A DNA stretch of 64,000 bases from an uncultured Clostridium sp. (lineage in GTDB: Bacteria > Bacillota > Clostridia > TANB77 > CAG-508). The notes below the pieces were generated by a model. The model did not search any database, was not told the DNA's origin, and saw only the letters and a program-made list of their open reading frames with translations. Position 1 is the first letter of the stretch. Every line of letters starts with the position of its first letter. Below, piece by piece: positions 502 to 55,974 of the stretch. Made by a program: the position numbers and the translations under genes. The stretch is from NCBI GenBank assembly GCA_900551615.1, contig URWN01000004.1, positions 10,494 through 74,493 on the forward strand, read 5' to 3'.

Positions 502-3500
502 TTACTCACTTATCCCATCAAAAATTTTCTTAATCTCATCATTATAATAAATAGCTCCGCAAGGTCTAATATCTTCACCAATTTTAACTTGAACATTCAT
601 ATTATTCTTATCTCCTGAAAAGTATTTAATGGCACATCTTAATTTTTCTTTTTGTTCTTCTGTAAAATCAGTAATATCAAAAGTTACAACCTTCGGCTTT
701 TCTTCGCCTAAGTCTTTAATTTCATTTGCTATTATAGTTGGTTCTTGTTCCTCTCTAATGCTTAAGCGTCCATCAACTACTACAATGTTTTCTTCTACCA
801 AACTTCTTCCCGCTCCTATAACTGCATTTTCAAATGCAATTATTTCAACAGTTCCATATAAATCTTCTATTGTAATAAATGCCATTATTTTATTATTTTT
901 TGTGTATTTCTTTTTTATCGATGTTATAATTCCCGCAAATTTCACTTTCTGTCCATCTACAAATTTAGGTTTAGTATTTTTTATTTGTGCATTTGACATT
1001 TCTATACTGCCTTCTGCATTATTTTCAGTATTATTTGCTAAATTTTGTTCACTTATTTGTATCAAATCTATACTGCTAATATTTGTTGAATGCATAATTT
1101 GCTCTCTTAATTTTTCAAGTGGATGTCCTGAAATATAAATTCCAAGCATTTCTTTTTCCATTGAAAATAACTCTTTTTCTGGCAATTCTGGATGTTCTTC
1201 AAATTGATATTTTTGTTTTTCCATTTCTTCTTTTTCTTGTTCTGTTCCTATATCAAACATTGATACTTGTCCATTAAATCCTTTTTTCTTTCCACTTTGA
1301 ATTGTGTCCATTATTGTTTCAAATGATGCTAATAGTGTTGCTCTTGTTTGTTCAAATTCGTCAAATACTCCTGCTTTTATTAGACTTTCTACACATTTTT
1401 TGTTTACTTGTGTTTCTGCTATTCTTTCACAAAAATCTGTAAAGCTTTTGTATTCTCCATTTTCTTTTCTTTCTGCTACTATGTTTTCTACTGGTACTGT
1501 TCCTACATTTTTTATTGCTCCAAGTCCAAAACGAATTTTGCCAACCGCTTCTGATTTATTAACCTCTACTGTGAATTTTTCAAAGCTTTTGTTTATGTCT
1601 GGCTTTAGTATTTGGATTCCAAGTCTTTTACACTCATCAATATATTGAGGTGCTTTGTCCAAATTTCCTAAATAACTATTTAAAGTTGCTGCCATAAATT
1701 CTGCTGGATAATATGCTTTTAAATATGCTGTTCTGTATGATACAACTGCATAACATGCTGCATGTGATTTGTTAAATGCATATTTTGCGAACTCTGCCAT
1801 TTCGTCAAATATTTTATTTGCAGAAACTTCGTCTATTCCATTTCTTACACATCCTGGTACAACTACGTTTCCATCTTCGTCAACTTGACCATGTATAAAT
1901 ACTTCTCTTTCTTTTGCCATTACATCAAGTTTTTTCTTACCCATTGCTCTACGTACCAAGTCAGCTCTTCCTAGTGAGTATCCTGCTAAATCTCTAACTA
2001 TTTGCATAACTTGCTCTTGGTAAACCATACATCCATATGTTACATTTAATATTGGTTCAAGACTTGGATGTGTATATTCATTGTGTCCTGGATTTTGTTT
2101 TCCTCTGATGTATCTTGGTATTTGATCCATAGGCCCTGGTCTATATAAAGAAACTCCTGCTATCAAATCTTCCAAACAGTCTGGTTTTAGTTCTTTCATA
2201 AAGTTTGTCATGCCTTGTGATTCAAATTGGAATATTCCTGATGTGTTTCCTTCTTGCCATAATTTATATACTTTTGGATCTGACATATCATGGTCAAATT
2301 CCACATCTATTCCATGATTTTCTTTTACCATATCTATTGTGTTTTGGATTACTGTTAAGTTTCGTAATCCTAAAAAGTCCATTTTTAAAAGTCCTAATTC
2401 TTCAAGTGTTGTCATTATGTATTGGGTGTTTATTTGGCCATCTCTTACATAAAGTGGTACATATGTATCTACTGGGTCTTTTGTTATAACAACTCCACAT
2501 GCGTGTGTTGATGCCTGTCTTGGCATTCCTTCTAGCCCCATTGCTATGTCCAATATTTTCTTTGTTTGTTCGTCTGTTTCATATCTGTCTCTTAATTCTT
2601 TATTTTGTTCTAATGCTTTTTTTATTGTTATATGAATTTCATTTGGTATCATTTTAGCTAAAGTGTCTGCTTCTGAATATGGATAGTCTAAAACTCTTGC
2701 TACATCTCTTATTACCATTTTGGCTGCCATTGTTCCAAATGTTATTATTTGTGATACGTGGTCATGTCCGTATTTTCTTGCGACATAGTCTATAACCTCT
2801 TGTCTTCTTTCATCTGAAAAGTCAACATCAAAATCGGGCATACTTATTCTTTCTGGATTCAAGAATCTTTCAAATAGCAATCCATATTTTATTGGGTCAA
2901 TATCTGTTATTTCAATTGCATATGCCAAAATAGAACCTGCACCAGAACCTCTTCCTGGGCCTACTGGTATTCCATTTGTTTTTGCATAGTGTATAAAGTC
3001 CCATACTATTAGGTAATAATCAACATATCCCATTTTTTTGATTATTCCTAATTCATATTCTGCTCTTTTTTGTATTTCTTCTGATAGATTTTTTCCGTAT
3101 CTTTTTTCTAGTCCTTTGTCACATAATTCTTTTAAAAAGTCATAATGTGTTGGATATTCTGGTGGTACATCATAATTTGGCAATATTGTGTGTCCAAATT
3201 CAAATTCTACATTACATTCTTCTGCAATTTTTACTGTGTTTTCAATTGCATCTGGAAATGCTTTGAAATATTCTGACATCTCTTCTGGTGATTTTACATA
3301 TAACTCATCTGTGTCAAATTTCATTCTGTCTTCATCACTCATTCTTTTTCCAGTTTGAATACATAACAATACTTCGTGGTTATATGCATCTTCTCTTTTT
3401 AAATAATGTGCATCGTTTGTTGCAACTAGTGGAATATCAAGTTTTCTTGCTAATTGAACCAACTTTTGATTTGCTAAAACTTGTTCTCTTATTCCATTGT

Positions 3501-4026
3501 TTTGAATTTCTATGTAATAATCATCTCCAAAAACTTTTTTATGCCATAAAGCAATTTCTTCTGCTTTTTCATTTTGTCCACTTAATAAAGCTTGGTTTAC
3601 CTCTCCTGCTAGACATGCACTCAAACATATTAAACCTTCATGATATTGCTCTAATATTTCTCTGTCTATACGTGGCTTATAATAATATCCATCTACAAAG
3701 CTTAAAGATACCAATTTACTTAAGTTTTTGTATCCTTCATTATTTTTGGCAAGTAAAATCAAGTGATAGTAATGGTTGTCTATTCCAGGCTCTTTTTGCA
3801 ATCTTGAACGTGGTGCAACATATACCTCACATCCTATTATTGGCTTTACACCTTCTTTTTTACATGCTTTATAAAAATCAATAGCTCCAAACATTACTCC
3901 ATGGTCTGTTATCGCTATTGAATCCATTCCTAATTCTTTTGCTCTTACTGGCAAATCTTTTATTCTGTTTGCTCCGTCTAATAGACTGAATTCACTATGT
4001 ATATGTAAGTGTACAAATTTTGACAT
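502..4026 (-). CDS. dnaE: DNA polymerase III alpha subunit (DnaE type)
   Basis: 1174 aa. N-terminal PHP domain HLHIHSEFSLLDGA, pol III alpha core and C-terminal OB region. RBS GGAGAGAAAT lies upstream of the ATG. Confidence 0.95.
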   Translation of the reverse strand: MSKFVHLHIHSEFSLLDGANRIKDLPVRAKELGMDSIAITDHGVMFGAIDFYKACKKEGVKPIIGCEVYVAPRSRLQKEPGIDNHYYHLILLAKNNEGYKNLSKLVSLSFVDGYYYKPRIDREILEQYHEGLICLSACLAGEVNQALLSGQNEKAEEIALWHKKVFGDDYYIEIQNNGIREQVLANQKLVQLARKLDIPLVATNDAHYLKREDAYNHEVLLCIQTGKRMSDEDRMKFDTDELYVKSPEEMSEYFKAFPDAIENTVKIAEECNVEFEFGHTILPNYDVPPEYPTHYDFLKELCDKGLEKRYGKNLSEEIQKRAEYELGIIKKMGYVDYYLIVWDFIHYAKTNGIPVGPGRGSGAGSILAYAIEITDIDPIKYGLLFERFLNPERISMPDFDVDFSDERRQEVIDYVARKYGHDHVSQIITFGTMAAKMVIRDVARVLDYPYSEADTLAKMIPNEIHITIKKALEQNKELRDRYETDEQTKKILDIAMGLEGMPRQASTHACGVVITKDPVDTYVPLYVRDGQINTQYIMTTLEELGLLKMDFLGLRNLTVIQNTIDMVKENHGIDVEFDHDMSDPKVYKLWQEGNTSGIFQFESQGMTNFMKELKPDCLEDLIAGVSLYRPGPMDQIPRYIRGKQNPGHNEYTHPSLEPILNVTYGCMVYQEQVMQIVRDLAGYSLGRADLVRRAMGKKKLDVMAKEREVFIHGQVDEDGNVVVPGCVRNGIDEVSANKIFDEMAEFAKYAFNKSHAACYAVVSYRTAYLKAYYPAEFMAATLNSYLGNLDKAPQYIDECKRLGIQILKPDINKSFEKFTVEVNKSEAVGKIRFGLGAIKNVGTVPVENIVAERKENGEYKSFTDFCERIAETQVNKKCVESLIKAGVFDEFEQTRATLLASFETIMDTIQSGKKKGFNGQVSMFDIGTEQEKEEMEKQKYQFEEHPELPEKELFSMEKEMLGIYISGHPLEKLREQIMHSTNISSIDLIQISEQNLANNTENNAEGSIEMSNAQIKNTKPKFVDGQKVKFAGIITSIKKKYTKNNKIMAFITIEDLYGTVEIIAFENAVIGAGRSLVEENIVVVDGRLSIREEQEPTIIANEIKDLGEEKPKVVTFDITDFTEEQKEKLRCAIKYFSGDKNNMNVQVKIGEDIRPCGAIYYNDEIKKIFDGISE

Positions 4027-4047: not shown

Positions 4048-4086
4048 TGTCCAAAAGTGTCCAAAAGGGACGGTTCTTTTTGGACA
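4048..4086. repeat. Palindromic intergenic element: half copy plus a full 29-nt unit, GGGACGG core
   Basis: tgtccaaaag + tgtccaaaagggacggttctttttggaca. The 29-mer differs at one position from the copy at 54222-54250. It sits directly upstream of the dnaE RBS. Confidence 0.85.
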
Positions 4087-4129
4087 TTCTTTTTTGTATT
4101 ATATTATCATTTTATATTAAAGTCAATAG

Positions 4130-6066: not shown

Positions 6067-7089
6067 TTATGAGCAATATCTACATAATGTTGTTTCTATT
6101 CCTACTTGTAAGTCAATTTTCCCATTTTTAAAATTGTAGTCTAAATCGCATAAATCTTGTAATATATTTCTTAAGTCTTTTTCATTAAAATATTTTGATT
6201 GTACTTTATACTTTGTTGTTAAAAACATTTGATTTTGCTTTAAATTCAAACTAATAGCTAAATCTTTGTTAGTATTTATTGCCATTTTTGTTATATATAA
6301 TTTTTTGAAATGATTATATAATGTAACTAAAATTTTTGCTAAAGGTTCTTTTGCATATATTAAATTTTGTAAAACTTGTAATGCTCCTGTTATGTCTTTT
6401 TTTCCTAAATCATCTGTTAAATCAAATATTACACTTTCTAATTTTTTTATAGATAACTTGTCTATATCTTCTTTTTTTATTGTTCCATTTTCTCCTGCAT
6501 ATTCAATTAGTTTTCTAATTTCATTTATTAAATCTTGCATATTTGTCCCACAACATTCAATAAAATATCTTATTGTTTGAGAATCTATATTTACTTTATA
6601 AGCATTGCAAATCGCCTTTATTCTTTGTTCTATTTGATTTGGTTTTTGAAAATCAAATTTACATACAATTCCATTTTTTTCTATAGCTGTATATAAAGTT
6701 GATTTGCTATCTGCTTCATCTTCAACAAATACTAATACTACGGATTCATTTATTATTTTTATATTTTCTTCTATGTATTTTGCTAATTTTTCTTTTAGTT
6801 TAGCAGTGTCCCCAGATTTCTTTTTTCCTTCTTTTTTGAATAATCCTGTGTTTCTTGCAATTATTAATTTTTTTTCATATCCAAAACTTGGTGTTTCTAT
6901 GTCTGAAATTATTTCTGGCACATTTTGTTCATCTATCATTATAAAGTTTATGCCTTTAACGCATTCACCAAATAGTGTTTTTATCTTTTTTAGGTTGGTT
7001 TCTAGTAAATATAACTCTTCACCATATAAAAGATATAGTGATTGGAGTTGACCTGATTTTAGTTCTTTTTCTAAATTTTCTATTGTCAT
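6067..7089 (-). CDS. holA: DNA polymerase III delta subunit
   Basis: Length and pattern (LYLLYGEE.YL; C-terminal helical domain) fit HolA. Start set to the ATG at 7089 (MTIENLEK) with RBS GAGAGGAGAAAAGC. The 44-aa upstream extension in the ORF track is a translation of the repeat element. Confidence 0.8.
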   Translation of the reverse strand: MTIENLEKELKSGQLQSLYLLYGEELYLLETNLKKIKTLFGECVKGINFIMIDEQNVPEIISDIETPSFGYEKKLIIARNTGLFKKEGKKKSGDTAKLKEKLAKYIEENIKIINESVVLVFVEDEADSKSTLYTAIEKNGIVCKFDFQKPNQIEQRIKAICNAYKVNIDSQTIRYFIECCGTNMQDLINEIRKLIEYAGENGTIKKEDIDKLSIKKLESVIFDLTDDLGKKDITGALQVLQNLIYAKEPLAKILVTLYNHFKKLYITKMAINTNKDLAISLNLKQNQMFLTTKYKVQSKYFNEKDLRNILQDLCDLDYNFKNGKIDLQVGIETTLCRYCS

Positions 7090-7120: not shown

Positions 7121-7240
7121 TGGGGCCAAATGGGACGTTTCTGATGGGACAAAAATGTCCTTTTGGGGACAGATGTTTTAAATTTTTTAACCTCGGTTCT
7201 TTTTGGACAAAAATGTCCCATCAGAAACGTCCCAACTGGC
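7121..7240. repeat. Composite palindromic element: perfect 21-bp inverted repeat enclosing smaller hairpins of the GGGAC family
   Basis: tgggacgtttctgatgggaca (7131-7151) is the exact reverse complement of tgtcccatcagaaacgtccca (7214-7234). Inside are tgtccttttggggaca (7156-7171) and cggttctttttggaca (7194-7209). Confidence 0.9.
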
Positions 7241-9370
7241 TATCCTTAAAATTTCTGATACACTCCATGCTTGTGCAATTGTGCCTTTTGGTTCATATGG
7301 TTTTGATGAATCATAAATTTCTGCTATACTACCTATGCATCCTCTTTGATTTATTTCTTTTTCAAATGTCTTTATTGTTTTGGTAATAAATTCATCTAAT
7401 TTGTTTTGTAATTTTGCTTTGTATGTTTTTCTTTTTTCTGCTTTTATCATGTTTCTTAAAGAGTCAAAGTATAGTCCTAGTAGCCATGTCCATGTTATTC
7501 CTTGGTGATAGCTCATGTCTCTTTTAAATTCGTCTCCTTCATATATTTCAACATAATTTGGTTCACCTTTTGCTAATGATTTTAGTCCGTAGTTGTTTAA
7601 TAATTTCTTTTCTACAACATTTATCATATTATATGCAATCTCTGAATTTGGTTCAATTATAGGGTATGTTAATGAAAGTGCAAATAACTGGTTTGGTCTT
7701 ATTCTGCTGTCTCCAAGTACATCATATAGGCATTTCCTTTTTGAATTATAGAATTTTTCGTTAAATGATTTTTTGCATTTTTTTGCTATGTCTTTATATA
7801 TTTTTATTTTTGCTTTATATTCGTTTGTTTCTGCCGTTATATTATTTTCATTTACTAGGTTTTTATTTGATTCTTCTTTGCTTATTTCATTTTGATTGAT
7901 TTTTAATTTTTCTGTTAAATCTATCATTATCATTAAACTGTTGTACCATAAGCTATTTATTTCTACCGCTTTTCCATTTCTTGGCGTTGCTGCAATTCCA
8001 TATGTTTTTACGTCCATCCATGTGTTTTGAGTATTTTCAGTTCCTGATGATATAAGGAAGTCACTGTCTAAATAAATATTGTTATTATCTATGTCTATTC
8101 CTTTAATGTAGTTTTCTATTATTTTTTCTAATTTATCATAAATATTTTTTTCTACAAATTCATAGTCACCTGTATAATTAATATATTTTTGTATTTGTTC
8201 AAATAACAATAAAGATGCATCAACACTATTATATAGTGGGCGGTTATCAAATCCTGAGTAGCCATTTGGAACTAGTCCATATTTGATGTCTCTTACCATT
8301 GTAAGTAACACTTCTTTTGCAAGTTCATATCTTTTTGTTTTTAATAATAAGCCTTCAAATGATATTAAACTATCTCTACCCCAATCTAAAAACCATGGAT
8401 AGCCTGCAATTATTGTATGCAATCTAAATGTTGGTCTATATACTATAAATTGATCTGCTGCTTTTATTAATTCTTTTGTAAGTTCCTTTTTACTTTTTTC
8501 AATTGGATTTTCTTTTTTACTTTCTTTAGTTTCATAATTTTTAATTTGTGTATGTTCTAAAAGTTTTGAGTTTTCTATTATTTTGTCTATTCTTTCATTT
8601 TCTTTTTTAATTAATTCATTAAGATTTATTTCTTCTATATTTTCTTCTAATCCACATACAAATGAAATTTCTTTTTCCTCATTGGGTTGTAGTTCAATTT
8701 CATATACTCCTGTAACACTATGATTTTCTTTTGGATAAAATCCACGTTTTTGCTCTTCTATATAAAACATGTCTTTAAAGATGTCATTTTTGTGCTCAAT
8801 GTATTTGCCTTCTGATAAATTCATATATACTGGTGTCTTTGAGTTTCCATCTATAACTAGTTTTACTTTTGTTCCATTTATTTGTTGCTTAACATCAAAA
8901 GCATGGTCTGTGCTCATTGAATGGAAGTCTCTAAAATTAACGATTGGAGCTAATGTTAATATAGCTTTTTTATTTGTGTTTTTTATTTTATATTGTATTC
9001 CTACTATTTCTTTGCCTTGTTCCATGCATATTGTTTTTGATATTTCAGTTTCATTTACTTTGTATGTATATACTGGGAAATTATCTTTTTCAAATTTTTC
9101 TTGATATTTATATCCTTGTGAAATGTAGTTTTCTCCTATATTTGTATATAAATCATATTTAACATCTTCTATTTTAATACTTTCATCTACTTTGGATAAT
9201 ATTAAATATCTTTGTGCTGGTGGTGTTAATGGAGCTATTAATAATCCATGGTATTTTCTTGTATTTGCACCTATAATTGTTGAACTTGCAAATCCTCCCA
9301 TACCATTTGTTATTAACCATTCCTTTTTTAGTCCATCTTCTAATTTTAGATTCTCTTTTGTAAATTCCAT
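7187..9370 (-). CDS. Glycogen debranching enzyme / amylo-alpha-1,6-glucosidase family (archaeal-type GDE)
   Basis: The N-terminus EWLITNGMGGFASSTIIGANTRKYHGLLIAP is typical of the GDE N-terminal domain, and the C-terminal part fits a six-hairpin glucosidase. The last ~16 codons are encoded by the repeat at 7187-7234. Confidence 0.85.
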   Translation of the reverse strand: MEFTKENLKLEDGLKKEWLITNGMGGFASSTIIGANTRKYHGLLIAPLTPPAQRYLILSKVDESIKIEDVKYDLYTNIGENYISQGYKYQEKFEKDNFPVYTYKVNETEISKTICMEQGKEIVGIQYKIKNTNKKAILTLAPIVNFRDFHSMSTDHAFDVKQQINGTKVKLVIDGNSKTPVYMNLSEGKYIEHKNDIFKDMFYIEEQKRGFYPKENHSVTGVYEIELQPNEEKEISFVCGLEENIEEINLNELIKKENERIDKIIENSKLLEHTQIKNYETKESKKENPIEKSKKELTKELIKAADQFIVYRPTFRLHTIIAGYPWFLDWGRDSLISFEGLLLKTKRYELAKEVLLTMVRDIKYGLVPNGYSGFDNRPLYNSVDASLLLFEQIQKYINYTGDYEFVEKNIYDKLEKIIENYIKGIDIDNNNIYLDSDFLISSGTENTQNTWMDVKTYGIAATPRNGKAVEINSLWYNSLMIMIDLTEKLKINQNEISKEESNKNLVNENNITAETNEYKAKIKIYKDIAKKCKKSFNEKFYNSKRKCLYDVLGDSRIRPNQLFALSLTYPIIEPNSEIAYNMINVVEKKLLNNYGLKSLAKGEPNYVEIYEGDEFKRDMSYHQGITWTWLLGLYFDSLRNMIKAEKRKTYKAKLQNKLDEFITKTIKTFEKEINQRGCIGSIAEIYDSSKPYEPKGTIAQAWSVSEILRIASWDVSDGTFLSKKNRG

Positions 9371-9391: not shown

Positions 9392-11086
9392 TTATTGTGT
9401 TTTTCTTCTTCTTCCTCTTTGGCTTTTTGGAAGTGTTTTTGTATCTCTTTTTGTAGTCATTGGTTGTTTCATGCTTTTTTCATATTCTTTTCTAAATTCC
9501 AACACTTCTTTATCTTCTTGAAATTGATTGTTTTCTTTTAAAATTTCTTTATTTTCTTTTTTTGCCGTCTTTTTTGCTTTTTTAGCTTCTTTTCTCATTT
9601 TTTGTTCTTTAAGTTTTATCATTTCGTCTGCTTGTTTTATTGATTGTATTCTATCACTGTATTTATTGCTAAATTTACTATTTTTTTTATGTTTGTCTTT
9701 GTTTGTTTTTTTATTTTTCTTAGCATCTTTAGCCATTTGTTTTTTTATTTTATTTATTCTTTTATCTTCTCTTAGTTTATTGTTTAACATTAAGAATTGT
9801 GGATCATTTTGTTTATCTTGATATTTTAAATCATCACATATAAGTCCAATAATTGATTCTGCTACTAATTCTGGGTCATGTCTTATACATCCTTCTGTTA
9901 TCATTGATAGATTTCTTTGTAAAAATGTTATTCCTTTTACTTTATCAACATTGCTATCTACTAGGTCTTGTCCTTCTAGATTGTATTTTTTTATGTATTC
10001 TGGAACAACTTCTCCAGTATCATAAATACAATAATCAACTATTCCTTTTCCACAATGTTCTATTATTGCATTTAAATGGTCTGAAACACTATATTCATCT
10101 GTTTGTCCTGGTTCTGTCATTATATTACTTATATAAACTTTTAACCCTGTAGATTCTTTTATTGCTTTTGCAACACCATTTACTAATAAGTTTGGTATAA
10201 CATTTGTATACAAACTTCCTGGTCCAATTATTATGCAATCTGCTTCTCTTATTGCTTCTAAAACGCCTGGAGCTGGTCTACAGTTTGTTGGATTTAAATA
10301 AATTCTATTTATTTTTGTTACTTTATCATAAACAACTTCTGCAATTTTTGATTTTTCTGTTACTAAATATCCATTTTGAAGTTCTGCTGTTATATTCATT
10401 TCATCTAAAGTGACTGGTAATACTCTTCCGACAATGTTTAAAACTTCGTTACTTTTTATTATTGAATCTGAAAAATCTTTATTTATATTTTTCATTGCAC
10501 TAAAGTATATGTCAGAAAACTTTAAATTTCTTAATCTTCCATCTGTAAATTTATAATTAAATAGTTTTCCTAATTGTTCATCTTGATTAGAAAGTGCAAC
10601 CAGACTATCTTTTACATCATCTAATGGCATTGTTTGTAACTCTCTTCTTGATTCACTTTCTTTTTCTCCATAATCAGATATTGTAACAATAGCAGTTAAA
10701 TTATCAGTATATTTTTTTAAGCCTGTAAGTACTGTATTTAAGCCTGTTCCTCCTCCTATTACAACAATATTAGGTCCTTGGTGATATACTTTTTTATTAA
10801 ATATTAATGATTTTACATTTACATTACTTTTATCAGTCATTCTATCATCTGTTGATTCTATTAAAATTTCTAATATTCTTTTATTTAAGCATACTAATCC
10901 AAATATTACAGCTACTACCCCAATTACAAATGTTATTATTATTTTTGCTAATTCTTCAAATGACATTTCTTTTAATACTAATATTTCTGCTGTTCCATAA
11001 CATATTAATGCTATTCCTATTAGTATTAATAGCATCCACCTTTTTAGCTTACTTTTTGAATCAAACCACTTTATAAATCCATTCAT
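9392..11086 (-). CDS. YvcK/CofD-like (UPF0052) protein with N-terminal TM segments and a Lys-rich C-terminal tail
   Basis: Core NIVVIGGGTGLNTVLTGLKKYTDNLTAIVTISD. It is preceded by ~100 aa with two hydrophobic helices and followed by a ~130-aa K/E-rich tail. Confidence 0.75.
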   Translation of the reverse strand: MNGFIKWFDSKSKLKRWMLLILIGIALICYGTAEILVLKEMSFEELAKIIITFVIGVVAVIFGLVCLNKRILEILIESTDDRMTDKSNVNVKSLIFNKKVYHQGPNIVVIGGGTGLNTVLTGLKKYTDNLTAIVTISDYGEKESESRRELQTMPLDDVKDSLVALSNQDEQLGKLFNYKFTDGRLRNLKFSDIYFSAMKNINKDFSDSIIKSNEVLNIVGRVLPVTLDEMNITAELQNGYLVTEKSKIAEVVYDKVTKINRIYLNPTNCRPAPGVLEAIREADCIIIGPGSLYTNVIPNLLVNGVAKAIKESTGLKVYISNIMTEPGQTDEYSVSDHLNAIIEHCGKGIVDYCIYDTGEVVPEYIKKYNLEGQDLVDSNVDKVKGITFLQRNLSMITEGCIRHDPELVAESIIGLICDDLKYQDKQNDPQFLMLNNKLREDKRINKIKKQMAKDAKKNKKTNKDKHKKNSKFSNKYSDRIQSIKQADEMIKLKEQKMRKEAKKAKKTAKKENKEILKENNQFQEDKEVLEFRKEYEKSMKQPMTTKRDTKTLPKSQRGRRRKTQ

Positions 11087-11111: not shown

Positions 11112-11140
11112 TGTCCAAAAAGAACCGTCCCTATTGGACA
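11112..11140. repeat. 29-nt palindromic element, exact copy
   Basis: tgtccaaaaagaaccgtccctattggaca is identical to 54448-54476 and is the exact reverse complement of 54222-54250. It contains the murB stop codon (11131-11133). Confidence 0.9.
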
Positions 11141-12048
11141 ATTTTGATTTCAAATTCTATCTTTTTTCCAAATTTTTCATAAACCTTATCCGTAACGTAT
11201 TTTGCTAAATCTAGCACATCTTGTGCTGTTGCGTTTCCTGTGTTTATTATAAATCCTGCGTGTTTTTCTGAAACCTTTGCACCACCAATTGTGTATCCTT
11301 TTAACCCGGCATCGTCAATTAGTTTTGCTGTTATAAAATCTGTTCCTCTTTTAAATGTACTTCCAGCTGATGGATATTCTATTGGTTGTTTTTCTTTTCT
11401 AAATTGTGTGTATTCATCCATTTTAGCTTTTATTTCTTTTGCATTTCCTTTTTCTAATATTATTTTTGCTTGTAATATGATATATTTTCCACTTGAAAAT
11501 ATGCTATTTCTATATGTAAATTTTGCTTGTTCATTTGTAAATTTATGAATTTTTCCATTATAGTCTATTGCTGTTATTTCTGTTACTATGTCTTTCATTT
11601 CTTTACCATGTGCACCAGCATTCATTAATATTGCTCCACCTATTGTTCCTGGTATTCCTGATATTTCTTCAAATCCTGTTATTTCTTCTTTTAATAATTT
11701 TTGTGCTAAAAATCCTATTGGTGTTGCATCATCTACTGTAATTTCTATTTTATTCTGTTCTTTTGGTTCTATTTTTATTTCTTTTAAGTTTGTTCTTATT
11801 ACTATTCCTTTTATTCCACTATCTGATACTAATACATTGCTTCCGTTTCCTAATATTGTTATTTTTATTTTTTCTTTTTTAGCAAATTCTAATATTTTTT
11901 GTAGCTCTTTTATTGATGTTATTTTTATATAGAATTCAGCTGGTCCTCCTATTTTGAATGATGTGTGGTTTTTCATTGGTTCATTTTGTTTTATTCTTTC
12001 TTTTGAAATTATTTTTTCTAAGTTTTCTAAGATTTGTTTGTTTTCCAA
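11131..12048 (-). CDS. murB: UDP-N-acetylenolpyruvoylglucosamine reductase
   Basis: 305 aa. FAD-binding domain (HTSFKIGGPAEFY, GNGSNVL) and C-terminal MurB domain (SAGSTFKRG). Confidence 0.95.
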   Translation of the reverse strand: MENKQILENLEKIISKERIKQNEPMKNHTSFKIGGPAEFYIKITSIKELQKILEFAKKEKIKITILGNGSNVLVSDSGIKGIVIRTNLKEIKIEPKEQNKIEITVDDATPIGFLAQKLLKEEITGFEEISGIPGTIGGAILMNAGAHGKEMKDIVTEITAIDYNGKIHKFTNEQAKFTYRNSIFSSGKYIILQAKIILEKGNAKEIKAKMDEYTQFRKEKQPIEYPSAGSTFKRGTDFITAKLIDDAGLKGYTIGGAKVSEKHAGFIINTGNATAQDVLDLAKYVTDKVYEKFGKKIEFEIKIVQ

Positions 12049-23036: not shown

Positions 23037-23065
23037 CGGGATTGGTGGACGGGTCTCGAATCCCG
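23037..23065. repeat. Hairpin element with GGGATT arms and GGACGGGTC in the loop (terminator-like, bidirectional)
   Basis: cgggatt ggtggacgggtctcg aatcccg: 7-bp stem, 15-nt loop, flanked by A5 and T6. It lies between nrnA and truB. Confidence 0.7.
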
Positions 23066-24064: not shown

Positions 24065-24227
24065 AAGTCCCAGCCTTTTCTGTCAAATGGGCCAGGCCTT
24101 TTGGGCAACTTTCTTTCACTTGTGTCAAAAGGGACGGGCTTTTTTGACAACTTTTTTAACTGTCAAAAAGGGAACAATCCCTTTTAACATCTTTTACTTG
24201 TCAATAAAGGGCGTCCCTTTTGACAAT
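24057..24227. repeat. Array of related hairpins (TGTCAAAA...TTTTGACA type, GGGAC(G) cores) filling the nrnA-rbfA spacer
   Basis: Clear units are tgtcaaaagggacgggcttttttgaca (24123-24149), tgtcaaaaagggaacaatcccttttaaca (24161-24189) and ttgtcaataaagggcgtcccttttgacaa (24198-24226). Two degenerate units lie at 24059-24108. Confidence 0.85.
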
Positions 24228-24615: not shown

Positions 24616-24642
24616 GGGATTGGAGACCCGTCCCCTAATCCC
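24616..24642. repeat. Hairpin element with GGGATT arms and GACCCGTCC in the loop (opposite orientation to 23037)
   Basis: gggattggagacccgtcccctaatccc, flanked by T5 and T6. It lies between infB and rbfA. Confidence 0.7.
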
Positions 24643-29358: not shown

Positions 29359-29430
29359 TTTTATTCCTCCTATTATTTATATACTTTTATCATTTGGGGC
29401 TAATACAATTATTTTACCCTTATAATAATA

Positions 29431-31799: not shown

Positions 31800-31845
31800 A
31801 AAGATGAGATTTGAGTTAAAATTATAACTTGAATCTCATTTTTTG
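31800..31845 (+). terminator. Rho-independent terminator of the 107-aa ORF
   Basis: atgagatttgagtt (31804-31817) pairs with aacttgaatctcat (31826-31839). This is 14 bp including two G-U pairs, followed by TTTTT. Confidence 0.7.
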
Positions 31846-53280: not shown

Positions 53281-54186
53281 TTATTTAAGTTTAAATTTGC
53301 TAACAATAGAATCATTATCAAGCCAATCATTTTTTACCTTTACCCATGTTTTTAAATTTATTTTTAAGCCAAAGTTTTGTTCCATGTCAATTCTTGCTGC
53401 TCTTCCTATTCTTTTTAACATTTCTCCGTTTTTTCCTATAATTATTCCTTTATGTGATTCTCTTAAGCAATAAATTGTAGCTTCTATATCGTATATATCT
53501 TCACCTTGTTTATTTTGTCTTAAATTCATTTTTTCAACTTCAACATAAATTCCATGTGGTACTTCATCTTGCAATAATTTTAATGCTTTTTCTCTTATTG
53601 TTTCTTCTGCTAATTGTCTTAATGTTTGGTCTGTATATTCTTCTATATCATAATATGCGGGACCTGGTTTTAGGTTCTTTTCAATTTCATCTAAAATAAT
53701 ATTTCTGTACTTTTCTTGATATGCTGAAATTGGTATAACTGCTGTAAAATTATATTCTTTGCTATATATATCTATTAAATTTAATAATTTTTCTCGTTTT
53801 ACCAAATCTATTTTATTTATTATCAATATTGTTTTTCTTTTTGATTCTTTTATTTTATCTAATATTATTCTATCACCTTTTCCAATATCATCACTTGTTG
53901 CTTCAATTAAAAACAATACTATATCTGAATCTGGTATTGTTGCAAATGATGTTTCTACCATTGTTTCATTTAGTTTATGTTTTGGTTTATGTATTCCTGG
54001 AGTATCTGTAAATATTATTTGTGAATTTTCTCTATTTACAATTCCTTTTATTGCAGTTCTTGTTGTCTGCACTTTATTTGCAATTGCTGCCACTTTTTCT
54101 CCTACTAGTAAATTTATTAATGTCGATTTTCCTACGTTTGTTCTTCCAATTATTGTTACAAATCCTGATTTAAACTCTTTTTCCAT
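53281..54186 (-). CDS. era: GTPase Era
   Basis: G1 GRTNVGKST, G3 DTPG, G4 NKID and a C-terminal KH domain (IIIGKNGEMLKRIG). Confidence 0.95.
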   Translation of the reverse strand: MEKEFKSGFVTIIGRTNVGKSTLINLLVGEKVAAIANKVQTTRTAIKGIVNRENSQIIFTDTPGIHKPKHKLNETMVETSFATIPDSDIVLFLIEATSDDIGKGDRIILDKIKESKRKTILIINKIDLVKREKLLNLIDIYSKEYNFTAVIPISAYQEKYRNIILDEIEKNLKPGPAYYDIEEYTDQTLRQLAEETIREKALKLLQDEVPHGIYVEVEKMNLRQNKQGEDIYDIEATIYCLRESHKGIIIGKNGEMLKRIGRAARIDMEQNFGLKINLKTWVKVKNDWLDNDSIVSKFKLK

Positions 54187-54210: not shown

Positions 54211-54250
54211 TGTCCAATAGGTGTCCAATAGGGACGGTTCTTTTTGGACA
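54211..54250. repeat. Palindromic element: half copy plus a 29-nt unit (reverse orientation)
   Basis: tgtccaatagg + tgtccaatagggacggttctttttggaca (54222-54250). The 29-mer is the exact reverse complement of 11112-11140 and 54448-54476. It lies directly upstream of the era RBS. Confidence 0.9.
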
Positions 54251-54447
54251 TTTATATTATACACCATTTTCATGCTAAATTTGTAGAATTTTTAAATTTT
54301 TTTATTTTTTTATTTTTTTATTTTATCATAATAACAAATATACTTAGTTTTAAAATATCTATTCAAAAAAAATCTAATATAAAAAAATAAAATAAATTAT
54401 TTTTTATATTAGATTTTTATACTAATTTTCCGTTTCTATTGAGTATT

Positions 54448-54476
54448 TGTCCAAAAAGAACCGTCCCTATTGGACA
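54448..54476. repeat. 29-nt palindromic element, exact copy
   Basis: tgtccaaaaagaaccgtccctattggaca abuts the stop codon of the GT4 gene. Confidence 0.9.
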
Positions 54477-55769
54477 TTATGCATAAGCATGTCTTTTTTT
54501 GAAATCCAATAAATTTGTAATTTCTTTTTCTGTATTTTTGGCTTTTTTTGTTTTCTTTGCTCTTTCTTGTTCAAGCTCTCTTTTTTGTTTTTCTGCCATT
54601 GATTGACAAATGGCTTTTTGATATGCAAAGTGTGTGTCTTGTGAAATTTTGCTCCAATTGTATTCGTTTCTAACTTTGTTTTTAGCTTTTTTTGTTATTT
54701 CTGCACAAAGTTTGTGGTCATATAATAATTCTAATATTGCATCCGCAATTGAATTTGGGTTACCACAATATGTTTTCATTCCATTTTCTTTGTGTTGTAC
54801 TATTTCGTTTAATCCTCCAATGTCTGACACTACAATTGGATTTTCTGAAAGCATTGCTTCTAGTGCTACTATTCCAAATGGTTCATATGTACTTGGAAAT
54901 ACTGATATATCTGCTGCTTTATACATTCTTTGTACGTCTTTTCCTGCCATATATCCTGCAAAATATACTTTTTCTCCTATACCCATTGCATTTACTTGTG
55001 CTTTTAATTCGTCTATCATTCCGCCTTTTCCACAAATCACAAGTTTTGCATCATGATATCCTTCTAATATTTTTGGCATTGCTGAAATTAAATATTGTAT
55101 ACCTTTTTCATATACTAATCTTCCCATGAATAATATTATTTTTTCATTATCCATTGCAAATTTTCTTCTAAAGTTATAATCTCTTTCTATTCCGTTGAAT
55201 AAATTCATATTTACACCATTTGGTATTACGTTTATTTTTTCGTATGGTAATCCAAATAGTCTTTGTAATTCGTTTTTCATGTAATTACTATTTACTATTA
55301 CTTCTGATGATTCATATGTTAACATCCATTCTGTGTCGTTTATGTATCTTTGTGTTTCATCATGTATACCGCTGTTTCTACCTGCTTCTGTTGCATGTAT
55401 TGTTGATACTATTGGTATATTATAAGAATTTTTTAATGTTTTTGCTGCATATGCGACAAGCCAATCGTGTGCGTGTATTACATCAAATTTTCCTTCTTTT
55501 GCTATTATTTCATTTGCTTTTGCTACAAGATTGAAGTTTAATTGCATTATCCAATCTATGAAGTTGTTTGGATTTATCATATAGTTGTTGACTCTATATA
55601 CTTTTACTCCTTTGTCATCTTCAAATTCTGGTGCATCTCCCTCTTTGTATGTAACTACTGTTACATCGTGTCCGTCTTTTAGTAATGTTCTTGATAAATC
55701 ATATACTACTCTTGATATTCCGCCTACTACTCTTGGTGGATACTCCCATGTTAACATTAAAATTTTCAT
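54477..55769 (-). CDS. GT4-family glycosyltransferase (glycogen/alpha-glucan-synthase-like) with a Lys-rich tail
   Basis: MKILMLTWEYPPRVVGGISRVV and EPFGIVALEAM......V.S..GGL.EIV. Start set to the ATG at 55769 (RBS AAAGGGAGAA). Confidence 0.85.
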   Translation of the reverse strand: MKILMLTWEYPPRVVGGISRVVYDLSRTLLKDGHDVTVVTYKEGDAPEFEDDKGVKVYRVNNYMINPNNFIDWIMQLNFNLVAKANEIIAKEGKFDVIHAHDWLVAYAAKTLKNSYNIPIVSTIHATEAGRNSGIHDETQRYINDTEWMLTYESSEVIVNSNYMKNELQRLFGLPYEKINVIPNGVNMNLFNGIERDYNFRRKFAMDNEKIILFMGRLVYEKGIQYLISAMPKILEGYHDAKLVICGKGGMIDELKAQVNAMGIGEKVYFAGYMAGKDVQRMYKAADISVFPSTYEPFGIVALEAMLSENPIVVSDIGGLNEIVQHKENGMKTYCGNPNSIADAILELLYDHKLCAEITKKAKNKVRNEYNWSKISQDTHFAYQKAICQSMAEKQKRELEQERAKKTKKAKNTEKEITNLLDFKKRHAYA

Positions 55770-55974
55770 TAATGATTCTCCCTTTCTCTCGCTTCGCTCG
55801 TTCATCGTCATCCAAAATTTTTCAAATTTTGTCTGCCAAATCTTGGGTTGCCTCGCACTAATTTTCTTTTGTTTTCGACATTTTTATTTATCGAATATAT
55901 TTTATACAAAATATTTGTAAAAGTAAATGCTTTTTTGTTATTTTTTCAAAAAAATTTCTATATTTATTTTTTAC

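Follow-up and report, generated by a model that had tools for sequence, protein, structure and literature searches.

To our knowledge, work on REP/RAYT systems has been confined almost entirely to Proteobacteria. Descriptions of the largest RAYT class (group 1, or subclass 2.1) present it as a single-copy gene that has been co-opted and lacks a repeat population. This class is known as TIRtron/TIRYT (Di Nocera et al. 2013, PMC3733652), TnpA_Y1 subclass 2.1 (Quentin et al. 2018, PMC6006769) and RAYT group 1 (Bertels et al. 2017, PMC5581495). TIR families have been published as no more than 'moderately abundant', in a few Proteobacteria and Acidobacteria, and surveys have found no REP-like sequences beside Y1 genes of subclass 2.1 (PMC6006769). 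RAYT group 1 has been reported in Clostridia. For group 1 as a whole, published work gives an average of only 12 copies per genome for the flanking 16-mer.

Here we analyse a 29-nt palindromic element from an abundant, uncultured human-gut Clostridia lineage. Very probably the 29-mer is the monomer of a dispersed REP-type palindrome, its cognate enzyme being a domesticated single-copy HUH/Y1 transposase of the RAYT (TnpA_REP) class. The system is of the REP/RAYT type and is closest to TIRYT (RAYT group 1, subclass 2.1), a subclass assigned by features only.

Units in the 64-kb window

The window, that is, the whole stretch of 64,000 nt analysed, was searched with the 29-mer as a pattern. Exact copies were recovered at 11112-11140 (+), 54448-54476 (+) and 54222-54250 (-), and a copy with one mismatch at 4058-4086 (-), as the first-pass annotation had claimed. 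These strands are those of the query; the features below are given on the complementary strand, which carries GGGACGG (the G strand). At one mismatch or fewer, the four copies compare with none expected from 100 shuffles, while TGTCCAA-N15-TTGGACA occurs four times (0.01 expected) and the core hexamer GGGACG 11 times (0.98 expected). The extra half units and the partial copy described earlier are also present. That inventory was incomplete: besides the four near-identical copies there are at least six diverged relatives within the window, with entries below at 7125, 7156, 7213, 23037, 24123, 24161, 24199 and 24616.

502-4026, dnaE
4048-4057, + strand, extra 5' half unit TGTCCAAAAG, separating the 4058 unit from the dnaE RBS
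4058-4086, + strand, canonical 29-nt unit TGTCCAAAAGGGACGGTTCTTTTTGGACA in the dnaE 5' leader, antisense to dnaE (CM R1, 52.8 bits)
6067-7089, holA
7125-7152, + strand, diverged unit of the GGGACGTTTCT subfamily, without a matching 5' arm (20.9 bits)
7156-7171, no strand assigned, mini-hairpin TGTCCTTTTGGGGACA followed by GAT, equal to the 'truncated unit' end motif GGGGACAG
7187-9370, glycogen-debranching (GDE) gene
7194-7209, + strand, partial canonical unit, 3' half CGGTTCTTTTTGGACA
7213-7240, - strand, diverged unit, inverted partner of 7125-7152 (I12: 36-nt arms, 83% complementary)
9392-11086, CofD/YvcK-like gene
11112-11140, - strand, canonical unit, AATA variant, between murB and the CofD/YvcK-like gene
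11131-12048, murB
23037-23065, + strand, related intergenic hairpin with arms CGGGATT/AATCCCG and core GGACGGGTCTC, tentative member
24123-24149, + strand, related unit TGTCAAAAGGGACGGGCTTTTTTGACA with a compensatory C-G to A-T change in the arms (20.3 bits)
24161-24189, + strand, decayed unit TGTCAAAAAGGGAACAATCCCTTTTAACA, weak (9.9 bits)
24199-24225, - strand, related unit, reverse complement TGTCAAAAGGGACGCCCTTTATTGACA (16.9 bits)
24616-24642, - strand, partner of 23037-23065 with GGGATT...AATCCC arms around GGGGACGGGTCTCC, tentative member
53281-54186, era
54211-54221, + strand, extra 5' half unit TGTCCAATAGG, separating the 54222 unit from the era RBS
54222-54250, + strand, canonical unit, AATA variant, in the era leader just 3' of a TATAAT box, antisense to era
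54448-54476, - strand, canonical unit, starting immediately 3' of the TAA with which the GT4 glycosyltransferase gene stops
54477-55811, GT4 glycosyltransferase

The gene identities given earlier for the neighbours (dnaE, holA, murB/yvcK, era) hold; the glycogen-debranching and GT4 glycosyltransferase genes had been left unnamed. Subfamilies named besides the canonical one are TGTCAAAA, CGGGATT and GGGACGTTTC.

Upstream of dnaE, with a TTGACT-17-TATAAT promoter at 4126-4098 (-), the 4058-4086 unit covers about +3 to +31 of the transcript, and the orthologous site is empty in a sister species. Half units like the adjoining one are common in clusters of related genomes. The 7125-7152 unit is the left arm of a composite palindrome of ~115 nt between the GDE gene and holA, and the end motif found inside this composite adjoins full units in related genomes. 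The earlier description of all copies as intergenic needs one exception: the 11112-11140 copy includes the TAG stop codon of murB (11131-11133) and so is not intergenic in the strict sense. Its orthologous site is occupied in three other species, in one of them by a flipped unit, and a fourth species has only a decayed unit of a different subfamily. The 24199-24225 unit begins 2 nt past the stop codon of the 24228-24584 gene. Strains vary at 54222-54250, some having a 12-nt insertion and a mutated stem; this unit and the one at 54448-54476 are inverted partners 197 nt apart (I14). The window holds only singletons, this inverted pair and the composite at 7125-7240. In a manual tally of the eight oriented units, no replication-strand bias was visible in the window (four per strand). 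Sampling of 85 kb of the window species gave four units per 64 kb plus five per 20.8 kb.

A dispersed family in related genomes

A dispersed family, TGTCCAAAnGGGACGGTTCTnTTTGGACA, with pattern matches at 74 genome loci, has the 29-mer as its monomer. The exact pattern occurs at least 56 times in MAG CAKPCL01, from related gut Clostridia, and 16 times in CAMCQH01, copy numbers being drawn from MAGs and from loci sampled around matches. The element is not confined to the window and matches nothing catalogued in Rfam or found by a literature string search, the two outcomes against which the first-pass annotation had set its proposal being confinement and an existing catalogue entry; copies are found genome-wide in several species. 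Related MAGs contain monomers, direct dimers, 61-nt inverted dimers and composite palindromes of ~110 nt, and their dimers are direct in 20 cases versus inverted in 7.

Like REPs, the units occur as many extragenic copies in gaps between co-directional (62 units) or convergent genes (19), with only 6 between divergent genes, and for 15 of 41 the distance from stop codon to unit start is 0 nt. The dominant 'master' variant differs genome by genome. Occupied and empty orthologous sites were seen between sister species at the dnaE leader and at window positions 29359-29430 compared with L041/L063. This multi-species, genome-wide distribution, with its dimers and composite palindromes, bears out the REP/BIME-like behaviour proposed from the window.

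The 29-mer family seems to be undescribed, as the first reading had supposed. A known RNA family was rejected, the window having no Rfam match at gathering thresholds; in E-value mode it gave only sub-threshold generic long-hairpin matches, at 7129-7236. A literature search for the core strings returned unrelated primer sequences only. Viral contigs contained no match to the unit, and a phage origin was set aside. CRISPR-like orphan repeats were discarded as well: there are no spacer arrays, and units are single or form dimers with a 32-nt period.

The unit as an imperfect hairpin

The unit does not form the 7-bp stem with a 15-nt loop first described. It folds as an imperfect hairpin of 12-13 bp, in which the outer stem TGTCCAA/TTGGACA is followed by one variable mismatch, an inner stem GGGA/TTCT with two G.U/G.T wobbles and, on the GGGACGG strand, a 3-nt CGG loop. 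Pairing of the variable positions 9/21 was rejected, since their commonest combination is C:A; they are read as a mismatch or bulge. As RNA, the G strand folds at -10.6 to -13.9 kcal/mol versus -6.9 to -8.6 for its complement, and the 61-nt inverted dimer of related genomes reaches -44.7 kcal/mol. No GTAG tag is present in or beside the unit, the 5' flank being merely A-rich; CGTC occurs within the hairpin apex (CCGTCCC), not as a terminal tag. At 29 nt the unit lies within the 20-40 nt of imperfect REP palindromes, with arm covariation in two independent sets.

Such a structure raises the question of whether the units are host RNA elements for gene expression (attenuators or terminators, or hairpins that stabilise mRNA) with no transposase origin. 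A stable G-strand hairpin (-13.9 kcal/mol), usually with a short T run 3' of it, fits this explanation, as do a terminator scan that flags 4056-4088, the exact abutment on stop codons in 15/41 cases and the conservation of several sites across species. However, units lie in both orientations to transcription, and the orientation found in the dnaE and era leaders is the one with the weak hairpin. Identical sequences at unrelated loci, genome-specific master variants, tandem and inverted multimers, occupancy that differs among sister species and a strict, oriented association with a Y1 gene at 80+ loci all argue further against it. We therefore consider this explanation unlikely: the data are compatible with a secondary, exapted RNA role, but not with an RNA origin.

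A RAYT-class Y1 gene bracketed by units

A tblastn search found no Y1 transposase in the window, in agreement with the first-pass annotation, which had called for a wider search for RAYT genes. A RAYT-class Y1 gene does exist in the same species outside the window, flanked by two inverted 29-mers. It encodes P0121 (277 aa), in the conserved context mreB - radical SAM - small ORF - Y1 - radA - disA, and the bracketing exact 29-mers are at L085:9814-9842 (+) and 10786-10814 (-). We assign the gene to the window's genome on the basis of longest-contig size, which is 1,744,862 nt both for P0121 and for the window's Era protein.

Members of this Y1 family are 255-289 aa long and share invariant HUH (NHVH), Y---NP (RYIHQNP) and WSS motifs. 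The gene at L044:1157-1984 matches Pfam Y1_Tnp (E 3e-16), and the best family match is to NCBIfam REP_Tyr_transpos (NF047646), the REP-associated tyrosine transposase, at 71-76 bits over the full profile, a score of 74 being just under the curated equivalog cut-off of 80. The only PDB sequence relative, marginal at a profile E of 0.04, is 4ER8, and the top Foldseek match of the AF2 model is 4ER8_A, the RAYT-REP complex of E. coli (E 1e-6). Together these give an HUH motif, a catalytic Tyr in Y---NP and a RAYT fold, as in REP systems. The conserved C-terminal QLARVLGINRKIIER has weak HTH_23/HTH_28 matches, and the AF2 model is helical at 200-261; the protein is thus a long Y1 protein with an HTH-type C-terminal extension, as in TIRYT. 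All sampled CAKPCL loci together contain only one Y1 copy, and the synteny of the gene persists among homologues as distant as 52% identity. Against the IS200 model the Y1 proteins reach only 20-21 bits, below its cut-off of 55; an IS200/IS605 insertion sequence was rejected on this score, the single-copy state in conserved synteny and the absence of tnpB next to the Y1 gene.

The same bracket of inverted units surrounds the Y1 gene in ten species. Bracketed genes were seen at L085, L044, L081-L083 and L091-L096, and also at 41-54 of 80 distant loci. The bracket arms are TGTCCAA/TTGGACA, TGTCCCA/TGGGACA, TGTCGCA/TGCGACA, TGTCTCA/TGAGACA and TGTCCTTTTGG/CCAAAAGGACA; the arms of these Y1-flanking hairpins change compensatorily while the apex (G)GGGACGGTTC(T) stays fixed. 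Units of variable length were aligned with end-anchored constructs. In the bracketing units, 87% of cells were paired versus 74.5% in shuffles, none of 500 shuffles being as high. In 198 independent units, outer-stem pairing was 76% versus 47% in shuffles. Homologues down to 32% identity are flanked likewise by hairpin units. Of 80 metagenome loci with homologues 32-53% identical, 54 have the core on the gene strand upstream of the gene and 47 have it on the other strand downstream; wrongly oriented cores number 4 and 9, respectively.

These features bear on a second explanation, by which the units would be double-stranded operators, bound by the Y1 C-terminal HTH or by a global regulator, and would form a regulon or chromosome-organising sites, not a mobile family. 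Two window copies do sit right at the dnaE and era transcription starts, the palindromic arms would suit binding by a dimer, and the Y1 family has a conserved C-terminal helix-turn-helix with a weak HTH_23 match. Nevertheless, half of the copies come after a stop codon or in a gap between convergent genes, and because of the conserved G.T wobbles the strands are not equivalent. Moreover, a loop that is the most conserved part, between arms that vary compensatorily, marks a single strand that folds and not a duplex operator. Operators are accordingly improbable as an explanation, and a transcription-factor regulon in particular was rejected on position, multimer architecture and arm covariation.

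Inverted units also bracket housekeeping ORFs. Those at L009, L061 and L011 were rejected as transposase candidates, since they proved to be common housekeeping genes (def, for example); where units are dense in a genome, bracketing by itself thus has no diagnostic value. A regex screen for HUH...Y proteins gave three candidates: one at L035 without a Pfam match, an ISL3 transposase and the Y1 gene. Of all genes, only the Y1 gene is consistently bracketed by units, which places a single-copy Y1 gene inside inverted repeats, as in REP systems.

The ISL3 transposase, found in a related MAG (L018), leads to a third explanation, namely that the units are MITEs that stem from a DDE insertion sequence and are moved in trans, as might be thought of elements that are short, palindromic, dispersed and variably present. 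Yet the filled and empty dnaE sites show no target-site duplication, the ISL3 gene lies ~3 kb away from its closest unit and has none at its flanks, and no IS with matching ends was seen. Given also the consistent bracketing of the Y1 gene alone, this origin is very hard to credit.

Proposed mechanism and significance

By analogy with E. coli TnpA_REP and IS200/IS605 TnpA, the Y1 enzyme would recognise the hairpin that the G strand forms in single-stranded DNA. It would cut this hairpin, at a site likewise predicted by analogy, and rejoin it, slowly copying, replacing and homogenising units, which would persist only at harmless places such as gene boundaries. The L097 lineage gives a hint that units may decay once the Y1 gene is missing. 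Co-transcribed units would form mRNA hairpins in the dnaE and era 5' leaders and at the stop-codon ends of murB and GT4, where they may act as attenuators of transcription or as stabilisers of the mRNA upstream. Four species have units at several of the sites; unit movement is therefore taken to be slow, and some copies may instead be retained by selection on RNA function.

As a tentative extension, which we hold to be less likely than not, the family may be the first clear case of a high-copy REP/REPIN-like population whose partner is a Y1 transposase of group 1/subclass 2.1 (TIRYT-type, HTH-bearing), and the first among Firmicutes. The Y1 gene would be inherited vertically in a radA-disA repair neighbourhood, its product recognising the apex GGGGACGGTTC and not a GTAG guide, with progeny inserted or retained right after stop codons. 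If so, the units would be operon punctuation in the small AT-rich genomes of gut Clostridia.

The analysis supplies group 1/subclass 2.1 with a concrete pairing: a 29-nt hairpin, an enzyme, ten co-evolved arm variants and a conserved apex. Because this pairing is in hand, the recognition rule (apex sequence plus co-varying stem) is directly testable in vitro. In the essential genes dnaE, era and murB the units alter leaders and 3' ends; they also serve as strain- and species-level markers and break metagenome assemblies, many Y1 homologues lying on contigs of ~1 kb.

Comparison with known systems

With IS200/IS605 TnpA and its PATE/MITE derivatives, the system shares the HUH/Y1 fold and, as predicted by analogy, the recognition of imperfect subterminal ssDNA hairpins described for IS200/IS605. 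It differs in having a single-copy Y1 gene in conserved synteny without tnpB.

Parallels also exist with the E. coli REP/BIME and TnpA_REP system (RAYT group 2; 4ER8; Corneloup et al. 2021, PMC8266576). Both have an imperfect extragenic palindrome of 20-40 nt in co-directional or convergent gaps, a single-copy HUH/Y1 gene inside inverted cognate repeats (REPtron) and a hairpin that co-evolves with its enzyme, and 4ER8 is the best structural match of the modelled Y1 protein. By contrast, the E. coli REP has a GTAG tag, whereas here the conserved determinant is the hairpin apex, with no 5' guide tetranucleotide; our protein has an extra C-terminal domain of ~130 aa, and the host is a low-GC Firmicute. 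The REPINs of Pseudomonas and Enterobacteria (Bertels and Rainey; bioRxiv 10.1101/2021.07.10.451892) likewise have inverted doublets that form long hairpins (here in CAKPCL and CAMCQH), genome-specific master populations and a RAYT inherited vertically in a fixed context; unlike them, direct dimers here outnumber inverted ones and the window species has mostly singletons.

In common with TIRYT, the Y1 protein exceeds the E. coli RAYT in length, carries an HTH-like extension at its C terminus (weak HTH_23/HTH_28) and shows the Y---NP signature, with a serine motif following the catalytic Tyr; the Y1 gene is single-copy with inverted repeats at roughly fixed distances, and the repeats can form dispersed families, as dimers or clusters. 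The truncated-unit ends (GGGGACAG/GGGACAC) fit the published GGGGWSAS, from which the apex GGGGACGG differs by one mismatch. Since surveys of subclass 2.1 report no neighbouring REP-like sequences (PMC6006769), either our assignment to this subclass is wrong or those surveys overlooked the present family. Against the average of 12 copies for group 1, a 16-mer here occurs 40 times in the sampled part of one MAG of ~1 Mb.

Copies of the 29-mer in the window

Exact copies of the 29-mer TGTCCAAAAAGAACCGTCCCTATTGGACA lie at 11112-11140 and 54448-54476, its reverse complement at 54222-54250 and a version with one mismatch at 4058-4086, as the first-pass annotation had reported; no copy is expected by chance. 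The pattern TGTCCAA-N15-TTGGACA returns the same four sites (0.01 expected). The extra half units at 4048-4057 and 54211-54221 were as described, and the partial copy is present at 7194-7209. The G+C content of the window is about 27% and its minus strand carries most genes. The identities previously given to the neighbours (dnaE, holA, murB/yvcK-like and era) were confirmed by Pfam.

Genes around the units in the window (Pfam)
502-4026, dnaE
6067-7089, holA
7187-9370, glycogen-debranching gene
9392-11086, CofD/YvcK-like gene
11131-12048, murB
53281-54186, era
54477-55811, GT4 glycosyltransferase gene

A near-consensus promoter, TTGACT-17-TATAAT, lies at 4126-4098 (minus), upstream of the 4058 copy, which is therefore placed in the dnaE leader (in the order promoter, unit, half unit, RBS). 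The 54222 copy is similarly arranged upstream of era, and the 54448 copy begins at the base directly after the GT4 stop codon, TAA. The earlier view that all copies are intergenic does not strictly hold for the 11112 copy, which contains the murB stop codon. In several proteins the reading frame runs into a unit and stops within or beyond it (window 11131-11140, and L034:6576-6645, L071:3441-3500 and L085:10786-10834 in loci fetched from other contigs); those with short unit-encoded C-terminal tails (for example, ...NVQKEPSLLD) include the window MurB and a Y1 transposase. An AT-only 8-nt tandem repeat (TTTTTTTA, 54273-54332) lies in the 197-nt spacer separating the inverted units upstream of era.

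Hairpin structure and diverged relatives

On the strand reading GGGACGG (the G strand), the unit is laid out as TGTCCAAA-n-GGGACGGTTCT-n-TTTGGACA. Instead of the 7-bp stem and 15-nt loop proposed earlier, it folds as an imperfect hairpin of 12-13 bp, with an outer stem TGTCCAA/TTGGACA, an inner stem GGGA/TTCT requiring two G.U (G.T) wobbles, and a CGG loop; one variable stem position is often mismatched, most commonly as C:A. The RNA fold energy is -10.6 to -13.9 kcal/mol for the G strand versus only -6.9 to -8.6 for its complement, so that the two strands of the unit are structurally unequal.

A covariance model built from 37 units and run on the window without filters scored the four canonical copies at 52-53 bits and detected five weaker relatives.

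Weaker relatives in the window (covariance model)
7126-7148
7217-7239
24123-24149
24161-24189
24199-24225

Two further subfamilies are found in these regions, one with TGTCAAAA/TTTTGACA arms and the other with a GGGACGTTTCT core. The hairpins at 23037-23065 and 24616-24642, with arms (CGGGATT/AATCCCG) quite unlike those of the units and a similar core (GGGGACGGGTCTCC), are assigned to the family tentatively. GGGACG occurs 11 times in the window, versus about one expected.

Other repeats were also observed. Two 42-nt copies of another palindrome (AAAATGAGATTTAAGTT...AACTTAAATCCCATTTT; 31801-31842 and 37888-37929), 83% complementary and 6 kb apart, may represent a second, unrelated family of repeated hairpins or terminators. 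A 723-aa ORF (61739-63910, minus) contains about ten tandem repeats of 18 nt (TCTTCATTTGGTTTTTGT and variants, 61854-62033), which imply a hexapeptide-repeat region in its predicted product. Four adjoining small genes (40195-40803, 40841-41245, 41823-42263 and 42274-42978, minus) share a conserved 5' segment of ~77 nt across 40742-42993, whose predicted product, a similar hydrophobic N-terminus, looks prepilin- or pseudopilin-like.

A dispersed family in other genomes

The units form a dispersed, hairpin-forming family and are not confined to the window: a pattern scan (GTCCAANNGGGACGGNNNNNNTTGGAC) in which each species was represented by one genome returned 74 loci, with about 4 chance matches expected. 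Counted in MAGs from loci fetched around matches, distinct exact-pattern copies number 56 in the uncultured Clostridia MAG CAKPCL01 and 16 in CAMCQH01, and each of roughly twelve further low-GC MAGs of gut Clostridia has one to three; the window species was seen over about 85 kb only. In URND01/UMGS1151, one of these further MAGs, a locus (L076) matches the dnaE-leader copy of the window, and its neighbouring protein is 98.6% identical to that of the window. The dominant variant at the variable positions differs by genome (AAAA..TTTTT in CAMCQH, AAAC..TATTT in CAKPCL and AATA..TTTTT in the window). The family extends outside the gut genus, to a Sedimentibacter MAG (L051:3540-3700, 40% G+C), where four tandem 18-nt repeats, AAGTCCAAAGGGGACGGT, precede a full unit and its inverted partner, which indicates that the 5' half of the unit can amplify in tandem.

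Units occur as a monomer followed by a truncated unit with the end GGGACAGATCTT, as direct dimers whose units are 3 nt apart (20 cases), as inverted dimers forming 61-nt perfect palindromes (7 cases, -44.7 kcal/mol) and, in CAMCQH, as composite palindromes of ~110 nt spanning the entire space from stop codon to next RBS. After gene starts were re-called by a heuristic Shine-Dalgarno rule, 62 units lay between co-directional, 19 between convergent and 6 between divergent genes, and 14 overlapped ORF ends. In 41 cases the 5' end of the G strand faces a stop codon; 15 of these units abut it exactly (distance 0), and 34 lie within 10 nt of it. An A is found at position -1 in 66% of units and at position -2 in 56%. 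The exact junction with stop codons could reflect a target preference for (T)AA; it could equally result from selection in very short intergenic spaces.

Turnover of sites between species and strains

Occupancy of unit sites differs between close relatives. Orthologues in CAKPCL, CAMCQH and CAQUBD share 71-98% identity with the window proteins. At the murB-to-cofD site all four species carry a unit, that of CAQUBD being flipped and adjoining the RBS. The site after a 152-aa gene (window 29359-29430) is empty in the window; CAKPCL and CAMCQH each have a unit there, directly following the same stop codon context (ttggtaa/TGTCC). A congeneric species (82% nucleotide identity to the window across murB-holA, 92% in dnaE) keeps the dnaE promoter, yet has no unit from the -10 box to the RBS, and comparison with the window reveals no target duplication at this site; the units at its other two sites are decayed and belong to another subfamily. 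Strains of the window species differ in the era-leader copy, by an insertion of 12 nt and by a stem mutation that is not compensated.

In the sister species, the region upstream of dnaE (L097:9810-10365 and L100) contains a sigma-70-like gene and ~550 nt of non-coding sequence that includes a long, imperfect inverted repeat; the window has only 150 nt there. Some of its contigs carry, downstream of holA, an extra segment with a (CA)n microsatellite of about 15 repeats (L101:6230-6270, also L102-L104) and a 362-363-aa ORF.

A Y1 transposase gene bracketed by units

A cognate RAYT-class gene is bracketed by units. When every ORF of the fetched loci was screened by motif and then checked with Pfam, one Y1_Tnp protein emerged, in CAKPCL (L044:1157-1984; PF01797, E 3e-16), with a G-orientation unit upstream and two opposite-orientation units overlapping the 3' end of the gene. 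By tblastn, ~295 kb of fetched CAKPCL loci contain only this one copy and the window contains none, in line with the absence of a RAYT noted there before. The protein collection contains 2,425 relatives of the protein family; many come from contigs only about 1 kb long, as would follow from assembly breaks in the repeats on either side.

The 277-aa protein P0121, assigned to the window species, has 74% identity to the CAKPCL protein and occurs on 228 contigs, of which the longest measures 1,744,862 nt. Since the longest contig with the window Era protein is also of 1,744,862 nt, both genes are taken to lie on the same genome. The RAYT-class gene that the first-pass annotation had suggested looking for is thus placed outside the window. 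In six contigs, exact copies of TGTCCAAAAGGGACGGTTCTTTTTGGACA bracket the P0121 gene (10001-10834), and three more units lie within the 20.8 kb of the locus.

29-mers bracketing the P0121 gene
L085:9814-9842, +, upstream
L085:10786-10814, -, encoding the last residues of the protein

The neighbourhood is constant (tsaE/tsaD, mreB, a radical-SAM gene, a ~105-aa ORF, Y1, radA, disA, PPIase) and is retained down to 52% identity. The Y1 gene thus behaves as a vertically inherited single-copy gene, as described for RAYTs (PMC5581495).

A conserved hairpin with a T run (AAAAAAGTATAGCACAT...ATGTGTTATACTTTTTT; L085:9895-9945 and equivalents in L044, L081-L083 and L091-L096) separates the upstream unit from the Y1 start codon in every species examined, with small compensatory changes, and probably serves the Y1 gene as a terminator or regulatory structure. 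Just downstream, gene calling divides radA into two ORFs (~140 aa and ~257-308 aa) in many species (L085:10838-12203, L081, L083, L091, L093, L095), the L085 halves being in different frames around 11255-11290 (...RADRLRNS* versus ...IHNEDILFLGETD); it is intact in L094 and L096 (454-455 aa). Possible explanations are a frameshift that is conserved, a split gene and an assembly error that recurs.

Co-evolution of the units with the Y1 gene

The units and the Y1 gene co-evolve. In ten species the bracketing units keep the core GGGACG(G/T)TTC, and their arms change on both sides (TGTCCAA/TTGGACA, TGTCCCA/TGGGACA, TGTCGCA/TGCGACA, TGTCTCA/TGAGACA, TGTCCTTTTGG/CCAAAAGGACA). In a first covariation test, on end-anchored constructs from sequences chosen by hand, 87.4% of cells were paired versus 74.5% in shuffles (0 of 500 as high), with double changes in 5 of 9 pairs; slid registers gave 30-50%.

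A wider, independent test covered 80 metagenome loci with homologues 32-53% identical to the query and a G+C content of 28 to 67%. In 45 of 62 usable loci the best inverted repeat between the flanks reached a score of 17 or more (null 95th percentile, 15), and nearly all such repeats have variable complementary arms around (G)GGGACGGTTC(T), for example, AGGAGACAGGGGACGGTTCTCTGTCTCCT and GATACCGGAGGGACGGTTCCTCCGGTATC. Across the 80 loci, the core was found upstream on the gene strand in 54 (wrong orientation in 4) and downstream on the opposite strand in 47 (wrong orientation in 9); 46 more copies lie outside the flanks. Composition predicts only 6.7 core matches over all loci. In a set of 198 distinct units (66 loci), the seven pairs of the outer stem were 76% paired versus 47% in shuffles (maximum of 500, 51%), with 5-6 different pair types at each position. 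Retention of the core and covariation of the arms thus identify the apex as a conserved sequence determinant and the stem as maintained structure, a pattern that hairpins read on one strand should show.

E. coli TnpA_REP processes single-stranded REPs and requires an imperfect palindrome (PMC8266576). By analogy with this enzyme and with IS200/IS605 TnpA, the Y1 enzyme would bind the folded G-strand unit on single-stranded DNA, and would cleave and rejoin it, which would lead to slow duplication, replacement and within-genome homogenization of units. Effects on mRNA are also possible, through putative hairpins within the leaders of dnaE and era and through putative structures of hairpin plus T run that follow murB and the GT4 gene.

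Relationship to known systems

A literature search found the core sequence in no paper, and no paper describing a REP/RAYT population in Clostridia. The best NCBIfam model for the Y1 protein is NF047646, 'REP-associated tyrosine transposase', at 71-76 bits over the whole profile against a curated cut-off of 80. An IS200/IS605 element was rejected, the IS200 model giving about 20 bits. An alignment of 32 homologues shows an invariant HUH (NHVH), the class-2 signature Y---NP (RYIHQNP) followed by a WSS motif, and a conserved C-terminal helix-turn-helix (QLARVLGINRKIIER), to which HTH_23/HTH_28 matches are weak. A sequence profile search of the PDB gave E. coli TnpA_REP (4ER8) as sole match (E 0.04). 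With an AlphaFold model (mean pLDDT 77), the top Foldseek match was the RAYT-REP hairpin complex 4ER8_A (E 1e-6, TM 0.68 on target), followed by ISDra2 and IS608 TnpA.

The closest described class, with the subclass assigned by features, is TIRtron/TIRYT (Di Nocera et al., PMC3733652), which Quentin et al. equate with TnpA_Y1 subclass 2.1, carrying a C-terminal DnaA_C/HTH_23/HTH_28-like domain (PMC6006769). TIRYT is also equated with RAYT group 1, reported in Clostridia too (PMC6006769, PMC5581495). In these systems GGGGWSAS is common to the flanking inverted repeats, and some dispersed TIR families are 'moderately abundant' (PMC3733652, PMC6006769, PMC5581495); truncated units here end in GGGGACAG/GGGACAC, and the apex is GGGGACGG. 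Subclass 2.1 is reported without REP-like sequences (PMC6006769). The 16-mer flanking group 1 RAYTs averages only 12 genome-wide copies (PMC5581495), whereas here a flanking 16-mer occurs 40 times in the sampled part of one MAG. Unlike classical REPs, the unit family lacks a GTAG tag. We file the units and their Y1 gene as a REPtron/TIRtron with dispersed progeny, an apparently undescribed member of this kind.
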